Shown here: positions 2,446-30,140 of the stretch, piece by piece
Numbering within the stretch: the stretch's first letter is position 1
Layout of the letters: each line of letters opens with the position of its first letter
Virus record (IMG/VR): IMGVR_UViG_3300012662_000009
Coordinates: 94,647-158,646 of that record
Length of the DNA: 64,000 nt
Direction: 5' to 3' (one strand)
DNA from: a virus
Lineage: Duplodnaviria > Caudoviricetes
Made by a program: the position numbers and the translations under genes
Notes under the pieces: model-generated
The model's input: only the letters and a program-made list of their open reading frames with translations
Told to the model about the DNA's origin: nothing
The model's database searches: none

Positions 2446-3588
2446 ATGAGTGACACAAATAATATATATGCAGAGATAAAAGCTCCCCAATTGAGCGATG
2501 CAAAATATGGTGATAATCTTGATTCGCAATTTAATGCAATTAATAGTAACTTTACTAAAATAGGATCAAGTGCTTTTACAAGGGGTGATAAAGGAGACTC
2601 TGTAAATGCATATAGATTGGATATTACTGATAAAGTAAAAGATACTTATAAAGACGATTATAAAAAAGGTATTATAGCCCAGGCTATATATATGGGGTTA
2701 GATCAGGATGGATTAGGTCCTATACCTATTTCAAAAGATGCAAAAATAGAAGTTTCAGTAATTATTAATGATATAGAAAATCCTATTTTAAAAAGCTTTT
2801 GGTCTTTATATGTAGCGGGCAAGACACCGTGGTCAACCAGTAAAAATCTTTTATCTGTCGTAGAAAATATCTTAATTGATATTATGCCGTTCTTTTATAT
2901 AGATAAAAATTTTTATTCTGAAAATTTAAATCTACCTAATGATAAAAAAGATAAAACGGGCATTTATACTTTCGAAAATATATCTCCGCGCGACGGGCTA
3001 AGAATCTTATTCACTCAAAACCCTATTTCTCAAAGCATTTATTATAATACTAATAAAGAAACCTGGTGTTGGGCTTTAGGAAGTAATCAAACGGACATTC
3101 CTATATATAAACAAACTTATGATGATAAAATTTTGATTCCTTGGGGAGATGACAAAGACACTTATCACGCCATGTATGTTTATAAAGGTAGTGATGAAGG
3201 AACAAGAAAAAACAGTTTAGCTATTAGCCCATATAGAAAAAATAAAAATGATCAATGGGAAGCTATTAAATGGAAGCCTACAGATGAAGATTCAACATGG
3301 CCTGAATTGAATCTTGATAATTACTATTTAGTCCATGCAAATAGGGTTTTGGCAAGCAGCGGATATTTCAGAACATTATCATCACAGAGATTTTATACAG
3401 AAGACATTATATCAACTGAGAAACCATTAAATATTACTGCCAGTAATGGGATTAAAATAACTGGTGGGATTAAAATCAATATTGGGGGAGAAAATCAAGA
3501 TTTGGAACAATATTTAACTCGGCTCGATTCAAGAATTATATCTTTAGAAACAAAACAAAAGAATCCTCTATCTAACACTCCAAAATAG
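2446..3588 (+). CDS. Hypothetical protein, possibly tail-associated
   Basis: 380-aa ORF; short RGDKGDS collagen-like triplet and C-terminal coiled coil. Confidence 0.45.
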   Translation: MSDTNNIYAEIKAPQLSDAKYGDNLDSQFNAINSNFTKIGSSAFTRGDKGDSVNAYRLDITDKVKDTYKDDYKKGIIAQAIYMGLDQDGLGPIPISKDAKIEVSVIINDIENPILKSFWSLYVAGKTPWSTSKNLLSVVENILIDIMPFFYIDKNFYSENLNLPNDKKDKTGIYTFENISPRDGLRILFTQNPISQSIYYNTNKETWCWALGSNQTDIPIYKQTYDDKILIPWGDDKDTYHAMYVYKGSDEGTRKNSLAISPYRKNKNDQWEAIKWKPTDEDSTWPELNLDNYYLVHANRVLASSGYFRTLSSQRFYTEDIISTEKPLNITASNGIKITGGIKINIGGENQDLEQYLTRLDSRIISLETKQKNPLSNTPK

Positions 3589-28461: not shown

Positions 28462-28536
28462 GGTCCTTTAGCTCAGTTGGTTGAGAGCAGTAGACTCATA
28501 ATCTAAAGGTCGTAGGTTCAAGCCCTACAAGGACCA
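28462..28536 (+). tRNA. tRNA with CAT anticodon, most likely tRNA-Ile2 (lysidine) rather than initiator Met
   Basis: Full cloverleaf GGTCCTT/AAGGACC, loop CT-CAT-AA; paired G1-C72, no three consecutive G-C pairs in the anticodon stem; CCA not encoded. Confidence 0.85.
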
Positions 28537-28602
28537 CTTAAAGAGTTCTTTGACATTGTTGTTGAAAAGCCACCATGATGGAATGGTAGACATGGCAGAC
28601 TT

Positions 28603-29263
28603 TGTTCAAAAATCAAACTATGGTATATGAAAACTATAAAGTATACGGGCCTTATTTAAATAAAAAAGATAATAGATTGAGATGTAATTTAGTCTTTAAA
28701 AATAAGATGAAAATAATTTCTTATCCAAAATATTTAATGGAGGTTTATTTAGATAGATATCTGGATAAAGATGAAACTGTAGATCATATTGATGGAAATC
28801 CTTTAAATAATGATATAAATAATTTACGCATTCTTAAAAGAAAAATTCATTGTTATAATGATGCTTATCGTAACAAAGATTTAAAAGTAAAATGTAGAAT
28901 GTGTAGGAAAGAATTTATTGTGAAGGGATCCAGATTAAATGATAGAAACAGACATAATTCTGGTTATTTTTGTTCTAAACAATGCACAGGAAAATATGGT
29001 GCATTAATTCAGAATGGAGAAATAAAAAAAGAATATAAGCCAAAAATAACCTCAGATAAATATCAGGTCAGGAGTGCACCCGAAGAAATTCGAGATGTAG
29101 AAGCGGGCTAATTCGGTGAATGACATAGGCCTTATAAATTATGTAGAACGCCGAGCTAAGTTGAATATGAATTATTCATAAATGTGTAGAGACTATATAC
29201 CCGCCTCCTAAGTTCTATATGAATATGGAGAAGACATAGTCCAAGTGCTTGAAAAAGCATATG
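28603..29263 (+). mobile_element. Group I self-splicing intron with homing endonuclease ORF
   Basis: 5' exon ends in U, intron ends in G; P (aattcggtgaa), Q (aacgccgagc), R (agagacta), S (aagacatagtcc); P3 gcggg/cccgc. Confidence 0.9.
28620..29111 (+). CDS. Intron-encoded HNH homing endonuclease with C-terminal zinc finger
   Basis: ETVDHIDGNPLNNDINNL...H; CRMC...FCSKQC; ATG at 28620. Confidence 0.88.
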   Translation: MVYENYKVYGPYLNKKDNRLRCNLVFKNKMKIISYPKYLMEVYLDRYLDKDETVDHIDGNPLNNDINNLRILKRKIHCYNDAYRNKDLKVKCRMCRKEFIVKGSRLNDRNRHNSGYFCSKQCTGKYGALIQNGEIKKEYKPKITSDKYQVRSAPEEIRDVEAG

Positions 29264-29324
29264 AAAATCTGCTGAGCAGGAATGCTCGTGTGAGTTCGAC
29301 TCTCACTGGTGGTACTATAAAATA

Positions 29325-29502
29325 GGTTATATAGTTTAATGGAAACAGAATAGACTTTGATAAAAGAGAAAAGCAATTCTAATGCTGTTAGAAATTATAA
29401 GTTTCTCCATTAGATAACCTTTTCGCAAAGATAATTCTGAAATGCTCCTGATTTATCAAACTTTTAGCAGGAGAAATACAAGTTTAAATCTTGTTATAAT
29501 CA
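29325..29502 (+). ncRNA. tRNA-like RNA with large D-loop insertion and expanded anticodon loop
   Basis: Acceptor GGTTATA/TATAATC+A, D stem GTTT/AAAT, stem CTCCTG/CAGGAG, T arm ACAAG-TTTAAAT-CTTGT. Confidence 0.6.
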
Positions 29503-29511
29503 CAAAATAAA

Positions 29512-29613
29512 GACCACAGGTGCGCAACTGGATGGTCAACGTAACTCAATAACACTTTAGGCTGTTATTTCTTAATCGTAGGTAAGAGTATGGTGGTAAC
29601 GAGCAGTTCCACT
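29512..29613 (+). ncRNA. Unidentified structured RNA motif, copy 1
   Basis: Hairpin-AACGTAA-ctcaata-hairpin-TCTT AATCGTAGGT AAGA-GTAT-hairpin; homologous layout at 29872-30014. Confidence 0.6.
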
Positions 29614-29616
29614 GAT

Positions 29617-29688
29617 GGTTCTTTAGCTCAATGGTAGAGCAATTGACTGTTAATCAATAGGTTATAGGTTCGAGCCCTATAAGAACCG
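29617..29688 (+). tRNA. tRNA-Asn(GUU)
   Basis: Cloverleaf, ATTGA-CT-GTT-AA-TCAAT, G73. Confidence 0.95.
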
Positions 29689-29697
29689 CGGATATAA

Positions 29698-29783
29698 GGA
29701 GGAGAAGCAGAATGGATTCATGCACCAATCTTCTAAATTGGCATCTGTAATAGATGTTGTGGGTTCGACTCCCACCTCCTTCA
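29698..29783 (+). tRNA. tRNA with UCU (Arg) anticodon and long class-II variable arm
   Basis: GGAGGAG/CTCCTTC, CCAAT-CT-TCT-AA-ATTGG, variable stem CATCT-GTAAT-AGATG. Confidence 0.85.
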
Positions 29784-29789
29784 CAAAAC

Positions 29790-29861
29790 GCTCCTATAGT
29801 ATAATGGTTATTACACCTCACTTGTAATGAGGTTATATTGGTTCGATTCCGATTAGGAGCT
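29790..29861 (+). tRNA. tRNA-Thr(UGU)
   Basis: GCTCCTA/TAGGAGC, CCTCA-CT-TGT-AA-TGAGG. Confidence 0.95.
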
Positions 29862-29871
29862 CAGGAAAAAA

Positions 29872-30014
29872 GTTCATGGTTGGATCCACCTGGAACAACG
29901 TAATACTCAATAGGCCCACTGAGAGGGAAAACTCGAGAAGAACCTCCCATGCACACTTGATTGGTCTGAATCGTAGGTCGGATGGTATAGCTGCACATGC
30001 CAGTAATAATGTGC
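29872..30014 (+). ncRNA. Unidentified structured RNA motif, copy 2
   Basis: Hairpin-AACGTAA-tactcaata-variable domain-TCTG AATCGTAGGT CGGA-tgGTAT-hairpin. Confidence 0.6.
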
Positions 30015-30020
30015 TTGACA

Positions 30021-30056
30021 AAAAATCCTCTGAAAGAAATTTCGGAGGATTTTTTG
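30021..30056 (+). terminator. Intrinsic terminator closing the RNA cluster
   Basis: aaaaatcctctgaa-agaaa-tttcggaggatttttt. Confidence 0.8.
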
Positions 30057-30140
30057 TGTCCTATACTAAATTTTTTAAAACCATTTGTTATATCAATACA
30101 TAAAAGAATATATAACTAACGCAGTAAAACCAACAAAGAT

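Follow-up and report, generated by a model that had tools for sequence, protein, structure and literature searches.

A candidate tRNA-like RNA gene without decoding capacity in the tRNA operon of an uncultured phage

The third gene in the tRNA operon of an uncultured gut phage has the outline of a tRNA, and it is not a decoding tRNA. We consider it moderately probable that the locus encodes an RNA derived from a tRNA and still tRNA-like, which does not decode and shares transcription and processing with the rest of the tRNA operon. Comparison with related phages indicates that the candidate is a real structured RNA gene rather than a chance arrangement of letters, and that purifying selection appears to have acted on its fold ever since a sister phage clade diverged. 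The same comparison points to an accessory, dispensable gene. The DNA analysed, referred to here as the window, is the whole stretch of 64,000 nucleotides that corresponds to bases 94647-158646 of the IMG/VR record IMGVR_UViG_3300012662_000009, a genome record of 158.6 kb that is ~97% complete and has ~30% G+C.

The candidate gene and its operon

The operon is a single run of RNA genes with short, AT-rich spacers between its tRNAs. A blastn map of the operon elements on the contigs of relatives shows the same gene order there. In window positions, the run consists of the following:

28462-30057, plus strand: the tRNA operon as a whole, one run of RNA genes
28462-28537, plus strand: tRNA-Met, operon member 1
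28569-29315, plus strand: tRNA-Leu(UAA) with a group I intron that holds an HNH open reading frame (ORF), operon member 2
29325-29502, plus strand: candidate tRNA-shaped RNA gene, operon member 3, after tRNA-Leu
29513-29616, plus strand: element A, operon member 4, ~10 nt downstream of the candidate
29617-29689, plus strand: tRNA-Asn, operon member 5
29698-29784, plus strand: class II tRNA(UCU) of 87 nt with a long variable arm, operon member 6
between tRNA(UCU) and element B, plus strand: tRNA-Thr, operon member 7
29866-29995, plus strand: element B, operon member 8
~30020-30057, plus strand: terminator-like hairpin followed by a T run, operon end

Elements A and B are related to each other and are conserved in all three clades of relatives described below, and each begins a few nucleotides past the 3' end of a tRNA or tRNA-like gene. 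Common to both are AACGTAAyACTCAATA, AATCGTAGGT and ATGGT. Compensatory changes are seen in one hairpin (ATAACA/TGTTAT versus TTATGA/TCATAA) around the loop CTTTAGGC. Neither element has an Rfam match at E <= 10, and their single-sequence folds are unstable (z > 0).

The candidate itself can be divided into these parts:

29325-29331, plus strand: 5' strand of the acceptor stem, GGTTATA, paired with 29495-29501
29334-29345, plus strand: 5' strand of the D stem, GTTT (29334-29337), and D loop AATGGAAA (29338-29345)
29346-29439, plus strand: D-loop insert of 94 nt, one long irregular hairpin closed by CAGAAT/ATTCTG
29346-29351/29434-29439, 29355-29359/29426-29430, 29368-29373/29419-29424 and 29378-29384/29408-29414, plus strand: helices of the insert, with an apical hairpin at ~29390-29407
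29440-29444, plus strand: 3' strand of the D stem, AAAT, and G26 (D stem GTTT/AAAC in the sister clade)
29445-29473, plus strand: stem CTCCTG (29445-29450)/CAGGAG (29468-29473) with the 17-nt loop ATTTATCAAACTTTTAG, at the position of the anticodon arm
29474-29494, plus strand: variable region AAAT and T arm ACAAG-TTTAAAT-CTTGT (29478-29494)
29495-29502, plus strand: 3' strand of the acceptor stem, TATAATC, and discriminator A, with no encoded CCA

The acceptor stem of 7 bp, which includes G2.U71 and T3-A70 pairs and lacks G3.U70, forms an intact 12-bp stack with the 5-bp T stem, and the T loop has 7 nt. The candidate also has U8-A9, a 4-bp D stem and a D loop with GG, the loop being 8 nt long in the window and reading AATAGAAA in the sister clade. 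The earlier note on this DNA had described the acceptor stem, the D stem GTTT/AAAT, the CTCCTG/CAGGAG stem and the T arm as intact, and the T loop as TTTAAAT rather than TTCRANT; every one of these pairings is in the sequence, and so is the unusual loop. TTTAAAT is found in both main clades, and TTCAAAT in L033(ii), a divergent relative introduced below. The elbow contacts look weakened, with U (not C) at position 56 of the T loop and with A at position 18 in the sister clade.

The same note had placed a branched hairpin in the D loop. Its placement is confirmed by covariation of C29346-G29439 (C-G to T-A), which puts the start of the insert directly behind the D loop and makes the distal AAAT the 3' strand of the D stem. 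Its branching did not survive, since two of the proposed inner helices, GAGAAA/TTTCTC and TTCTAA/TTAGAA, are just 69-72% paired in relatives. Both overlap helices that are kept there (GAGAAA/TTTCTC overlaps AAAAG/CTTTT), namely CAGAAT/ATTCTG, CTTTG/CAAAG, GAAAAG/CTTTTC, TCTAATG/CATTAGA and the apical hairpin; the insert is therefore drawn as one long irregular hairpin, a fold based on the window-only minimum free energy (MFE) structure, the RNAalifold consensus and pair counts. In the single-sequence MFE fold of the window copy, the acceptor stem, the T arm, the 6-bp stem and the hairpin of the insert all reappear, at an unremarkable energy (z = -1.67). What supports the fold is comparison with relatives. 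The insert is also single-copy, as a blastn-short search of the 158.6-kb genome returns the insert itself alone, and for this reason the idea of a MITE-like miniature mobile hairpin was rejected.

Relatives, conservation of the fold, and loss

Exact scans of IMG/VR with a 22-mer and with a 39-mer of tRNA-Asn gave no match, and a DNA search of a phage collection returned generic tRNA matches only and no close relative. Relatives were reached through a 157-aa ORF just upstream, which led to many metagenome contigs. Among nine fetched loci with the most common allele of the 157-aa protein, eight (L037-L041 and L043-L045) have an identical candidate and L042 has a deletion. The sister clade has a 157-aa protein with 85% identity, and seven of its loci carry a full-length homolog of ~200 nt at the same place, after tRNA-Leu, with 76.5-78.2% identity. 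In a third clade (157-aa protein 75% identical), the contig L033 has two related genes. L033(i) (3033-3130) lies directly after tRNA-Leu and shares the common 5' frame and the central core; it lacks the D-loop insert and has a different T arm. L033(ii) (3311-3384, 74 nt) agrees with the candidate frame in the acceptor and in the D and T arms, its D stem and acceptor stem (AACTATA/TATAGTT) differing by compensatory changes, and is recognised as a tRNA by Rfam (53.7 bits), with a closed hairpin instead of an anticodon loop. The comparison below covers six distinct full-length sequences, including the window and essentially from two clades, together with the two divergent genes of the one contig. 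A covariance model (R1) built from the six gives scores of 51 bits for L033(i) and 33 bits for L033(ii).

Several wider searches marked the edge of this distribution. Distant relatives found through NrdD (19 loci, 48-66% amino acid identity) have no tRNAs nearby; a BLAST search with the operon against five whole records of such relatives found no candidate homolog, nor did R1 in three of them. Distant loci reached through a downstream 97-aa ORF have ordinary tRNAs only and no candidate homolog by R1. A degenerate T-arm/acceptor pattern hit at least 120 metagenome loci and 38 viral loci, which the R1 screen marked as chance matches only.

Two other tRNA-like oddities were seen on these contigs. 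The anticodon arm of L033(ii) is a closed 7-8-bp hairpin, TTATAAG-AGACGT-CTTATAA, which ARAGORN reads as 'tRNA-??? (gacg)', so that this operon has tRNAs without an anticodon of two different kinds. In a relative of the phage group (L057 769-880/L052 3326-3690), a tRNA-like gene lies ahead of a structured stretch of ~400 nt, richer in G+C, with a T arm at its end. The anticodon stem of that first gene, GCTGA/TCAGT, holds ~38 nt, consisting of CTGTTAT and a 31-nt hairpin-forming insert; its acceptor strands are mismatched, so the contig may be chimeric.

The fold of the candidate is well kept across the six sequences. A 58-pair consensus is paired in 97.9% of alignment cells, and five pairs have changed on both sides, against a mean of 1.3 in shuffled alignments (none of 500 reaches five) and 0-1 in slid controls. 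Two of these compensatory double changes fall in the helix at the insert's base (CAGAAT/ATTCTG to TAGAAC/GTTCTA), one in the apical hairpin, and the others in the T stem (ACAAG/CTTGT to ACGGG/CCCGT in L051 and L053, or to ACAGA/CCTGT); the other helices of the insert show G.U-compatible changes. All seven acceptor pairs are kept across the six homologs, with the exception of G1>A in L054. Since the consensus was drawn from the same alignment, a second test used a structure predicted solely from the window sequence, with 49 pairs: each sister-clade copy differs by 25-27 substitutions, and these break 2-4 of the pairs, whereas the same number of substitutions placed at random breaks ~10.5 (P = 0.0001-0.002). 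The view of the earlier note that retained pairing argues against simple decay is thus strengthened, by the compensatory changes and by the far smaller number of broken pairs than random substitution gives. The note had also held that homologs which are ordinary tRNAs or lack conserved pairing would speak against its reading. Here the picture is mixed, as one distant homolog, the 74-nt gene at L033 3311-3384, is a near-ordinary tRNA-like gene, but pairing is kept in the others.

At the anticodon position, the sister clade and L033(i) have 21 nt more than the window. Where the window has its 6-bp stem and 17-nt loop, these relatives read CTCCTG-TTTAATGCTATTAGT-TCCTG, that is, a 7-nt bulge GTTTAAT followed by a 32-nt hairpin. 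Their arm consists of a 5-bp stem CTCCT/AGGAG (TCTC/GAGA in L033(i)), the unpaired GTTTAAT, and the 32-nt hairpin abutting the 3' strand of the stem. Judged from these alignments, the window allele derives from the ~200-nt form and was shortened when recombining TCCTG repeats, or a similar deletion between them, took out GTTTAAT together with the 5' half of a hairpin conserved in the two other clades. The 17-nt loop, the most exotic-looking feature of the molecule, is therefore the result of a recent loss, in which GTTTAAT went, the sole anticodon-like 7-mer, which is absent from the loop that remains.

Close relatives have gone further and deleted the candidate independently at least three times. 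In L031, L032 and L042, where the deletion lies at a TATA repeat, nothing but GGTTATATAATCA is left. The gene of L046 breaks off behind GTTTAAT, and element A is lost there too. In L050, with a deletion at a GGGTT repeat, what is left is the T arm and the 3' strand of the acceptor stem. In addition, in a variant contig from run X2, tRNA-Leu continues into sequence resembling a class I tRNA-Arg and not the candidate. A gene so often deleted is therefore better described as an optional tRNA look-alike than as a working tRNA.

The neighbourhood of the candidate is plastic, and the whole operon varies among relatives as the candidate does. In L031 (3607-3676) and L042 (4379-4448), ~70 nt of other sequence (…GAAGAGCATTTAATTTGTTATGGCGG…CTTCTT…), absent from the window, lie between tRNA-Leu and the remnant. 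The tRNA-Leu(UAA) gene of the window (28569-29315) has a long variable arm and a group I intron between U34 and A35 that matches Rfam RF00028 at 38.8 bits (E 6e-8, span 29060-29261), under the gathering score, with an HNH/zf-FCS endonuclease ORF inside it at 28602-29111. Its alleles include intron-less copies (L031, L032 and L046), an intron without the ORF (L033) and copies with an internal deletion of the ORF (L035, L054 and L056); ARAGORN run with introns misreads this tRNA-Leu(UAA) as tRNA-Phe(gaa). The tRNA(UCU) (Arg) at 29698-29784 has the variable-arm hairpin CATCT-GTAAT-AGATG and discriminator A73. Its slot is filled by an unrelated, ordinary 73-nt tRNA-Arg(UCU) in the near-identical phages of L038, L040 and run X4 and in the sister clade, and holds only an acceptor-plus-T-arm minihelix in L033 (about 3473-3502). 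Sister-clade orthologs of tRNA-Asn(GUU) (29617-29689) are 96% identical and have the anticodon UUU (Lys), an anticodon shift on one tRNA body; such UUU orthologs lie at L046 2236-2307, L051 2022-2093 and L056 3913-3984, and GUU is retained in L053 and L055.

One may argue from this record that the candidate is a decaying, functionless tRNA pseudogene, a former tRNA with accidental insertions on its way to deletion. The three independent deletions and the internal 21-nt deletion all lie at short direct repeats, the operon contains other wrecks such as the minihelix left of tRNA(UCU) in L033, the T-loop and D-loop signatures are degenerate, and the single-sequence fold reaches a z of just -1.67. 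However, decay does not account for substitutions that avoid breaking pairs (P <= 0.002), for five pairs with compensatory changes, or for two inserts that remain full-length across clades though deletions arise easily here; moreover, phage genomes rarely keep 180-200 nt of useless DNA. We therefore regard a pseudogene as possible but rather unlikely.

What the RNA may do

The candidate escapes tRNA finders at their usual settings. The ARAGORN and Rfam scans that the earlier note had proposed as a check gave no call at 29325-29502 with default ARAGORN and no Rfam match even at E <= 10, and a sister-clade copy scores 19.6 bits against the Rfam tRNA model, whose threshold is 29. In place of the canonical 5-bp anticodon stem and 7-nt loop with U33 and a purine at 37, the window has its 6-bp stem and 17-nt loop. 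A relaxed ARAGORN run (-ps90) proposed a tRNA-Gln(ttg) with a 90-nt intron, 'tRNA-Gln i(37,90)', a call that was rejected because its D arm is mismatched and its anticodon stem lies inside the insert. These results are a warning for annotation, since tRNA finders overlook the gene at default settings and, once relaxed, wrongly report a tRNA-Gln with an intron. A tRNA ancestry is nevertheless apparent in the sister clade: when both hairpins are removed in silico, its copies become a 73-nt cloverleaf, which ARAGORN at default settings calls tRNA-Stop(tta) in four of five cases, and the gene therefore descends from a tRNA frame with two hairpin insertions.

RNase P, the 3' trimming enzymes and the CCA-adding enzyme read the acceptor-T minihelix. 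The candidate retains the parts that tRNA-processing enzymes read, namely the acceptor stem stacked on the T arm, the D stem and the discriminator A. On the preferred reading of a non-decoding, tRNA-like RNA, the gene would be transcribed as part of the tRNA operon, and RNase P and 3' trimming would free the RNA, to which a host enzyme would add CCA, as for its tRNA neighbours; we infer this excision and tailing from established knowledge of tRNA maturation and from the kept minihelix. The product would then persist as a stable tRNA look-alike unable to decode. If it is active at all, it may act on proteins with an affinity for the elbow and acceptor end of tRNAs, which it would occupy or recruit. 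Selection reaches the 94-nt arm, which would be needless for a mere processing signal, and this favours a mimic that engages tRNA-binding proteins. Of the suggestions in the earlier note, a generic tRNA mimic thus stays the best reading, but its example of a decoy for anticodon nucleases finds no support, because the window copy is without any mimic of an anticodon loop.

A bolder form of this reading, which we entertain only tentatively, is a purpose-built mimic: CCA-tailed, with the conserved D-loop arm and the central hairpin as binding platforms that soak up or misdirect a host factor with a sense for the shape of tRNAs, such as a defence nuclease or a toxin directed at tRNAs. If so, the mimic would be an optional counter-defence cassette for the phage, and this would explain its presence or absence among near-identical phages.

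An improbable alternative is that the gene is punctuation, its sole job being to supply RNase P and 3'-processing sites that free its neighbours, notably element A. The starts of elements A and B just past tRNA or tRNA-like 3' ends would fit such a job, no part of the gene is better kept than the acceptor-T minihelix, and a precedent exists in the tRNA-like 't-elements', which are described in PMC1920247 as processing punctuation in plant mitochondria. Yet element A is retained in L031, L042 and L050, where the candidate is deleted, and a minihelix would suffice for this purpose, which leaves the selection on the 94-nt arm unexplained.

The earlier note had also pointed out an exact complement between the enlarged loop and the insert, and had suggested a switch or pseudoknot. 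The 9-nt complement, TTTGATAAA (29356-29364) and TTTATCAAA (29452-29460), is indeed exact in the window, and each of the six sequences can form the pairing, a single A-U having become G.U. By pairing with TTTGATAAA, TTTATCAAA would compete with the conserved CTTTG/CAAAG and give two conformers of a switchable RNA. A complement of this length between loop and insert is expected by chance with P = 0.017, but 13% of whole-molecule shuffles hold a 9-nt inverted repeat somewhere, and no pair has changed on both sides; in the ~200-nt form, moreover, the same loop bases lie within a local hairpin, with which the pairing would compete as well. The switch is therefore compatible with the data, but no covariation stands behind it, and we regard it as highly improbable.

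Scarcely tenable, finally, is the proposal that a hairpin 'intron' in the D loop and another between positions 38 and 39 are cut out and the ends ligated to yield an ochre-suppressor tRNA(UUA), for although the sister-clade copies without their hairpins give the 73-nt tRNA-Stop(tta) mentioned above, the window copy has no GTTTAAT and ARAGORN finds no tRNA in it once the insert is removed in silico. Rfam finds no group I core in the candidate, its sole group I match being the tRNA-Leu intron. No bulge-helix-bulge was seen by eye, the junctions being the ends of a plain 6-bp helix without 3-nt bulges. In searches whose positive controls worked, tRNA splicing endonuclease, RtcB and Rnl2 (PF01974, PF01139 and PF09414) were absent from the 97%-complete phage genome; Rnl1 (PF09511) was likewise not detected, in a search that had no working positive control. 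A suppressor would also be at odds with the use of TAA as the main stop, which ends 95 of the 140 ORFs of at least 150 codons. The recoding test failed, as TAA shows no depletion among terminators, and 92.5% of the genome is already covered by ORFs of at least 100 codons in the standard code. In addition, G at position 32 is atypical for a tRNA, and the putative loop of the relatives has G32. Splicing to a suppressor is regarded as very improbable on these grounds, and the 'tRNA with non-canonical introns' of the earlier note is effectively excluded for the window copy.

Known tRNA-like RNAs and the place of this gene

The candidate shares with canonical tRNA (RF00005) the 7-bp acceptor stem, U8-A9, the 4-bp D stem, GG in the D loop, the 5-bp T stem with its 7-nt loop and the discriminator; it differs in the 94-nt arm of the D loop, the 17-nt loop without an anticodon context and U56 in the T loop. 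Introns of tRNAs are of the group I type at the anticodon loop in bacteria, and of the bulge-helix-bulge type in archaea and eukaryotes, where D-loop positions are included. Like intron-bearing tRNAs, among which the neighbouring tRNA-Leu(UAA) truly has a group I intron at U34|A35, the candidate has an interrupted tRNA frame, but the interruptions in its family are plain hairpins of 94 and 32 nt, and the window copy has no anticodon to restore. With the tRNA-like domain of tmRNA it has in common an acceptor stem and a T arm joined to a large non-tRNA body. The earlier note was right to set tmRNA aside, since position 3-70 is T-A instead of G3-U70 and neither ARAGORN nor Rfam calls a tmRNA; the candidate is far too short and has no tag-peptide frame, and the only tmRNA match near the locus is a 13.5-bit noise match elsewhere in the operon.

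The RNAs RNAC and RNAD of phage T4 were described in the 1970s. By analogy of architecture and genomic setting, the closest counterpart of the candidate appears to be RNAC, also known as species 1 RNA. Like the candidate, RNAC (139 nt) is a small non-coding RNA gene that lies within a phage tRNA cluster and shares the strand of its tRNAs. It folds with a terminal helix of its 5' and 3' ends, a T arm beside the 3' strand and long hairpins at the places of the D and anticodon arms, and has no anticodon. A non-decoding gene in a phage tRNA cluster with a terminal helix and a T arm is a description that holds for the candidate too; the likeness is one of kind and not of homology, and R1 finds nothing related to rnaC or rnaD in the T4 locus (L066). 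In RNAC, the T loop is the canonical UUCGAAU and the terminal helix is mismatched, whereas the candidate has a regular 7-bp acceptor stem and a D stem and bears its extra arm within the D loop. So large an arm at this place, in a tRNA frame that is regular elsewhere, is a distinct variant. RNAC and RNAD still have no assigned biological role (PMC3014915, PMC9697503).

The restricted distribution of the candidate and its frequent loss limit the generality of the gene. Within these bounds, the locus is an independent example, from an uncultured phage, of a kind of non-decoding tRNA-like RNA known from T4. Beyond what T4 RNAC offers, it brings clear descent from a tRNA frame, two dated hairpin insertions, apparent selection on the fold, and natural knock-outs in near-identical genomes. 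This extra material opens the question of function to comparison, for example of hosts and defence systems with the presence or absence of the gene.
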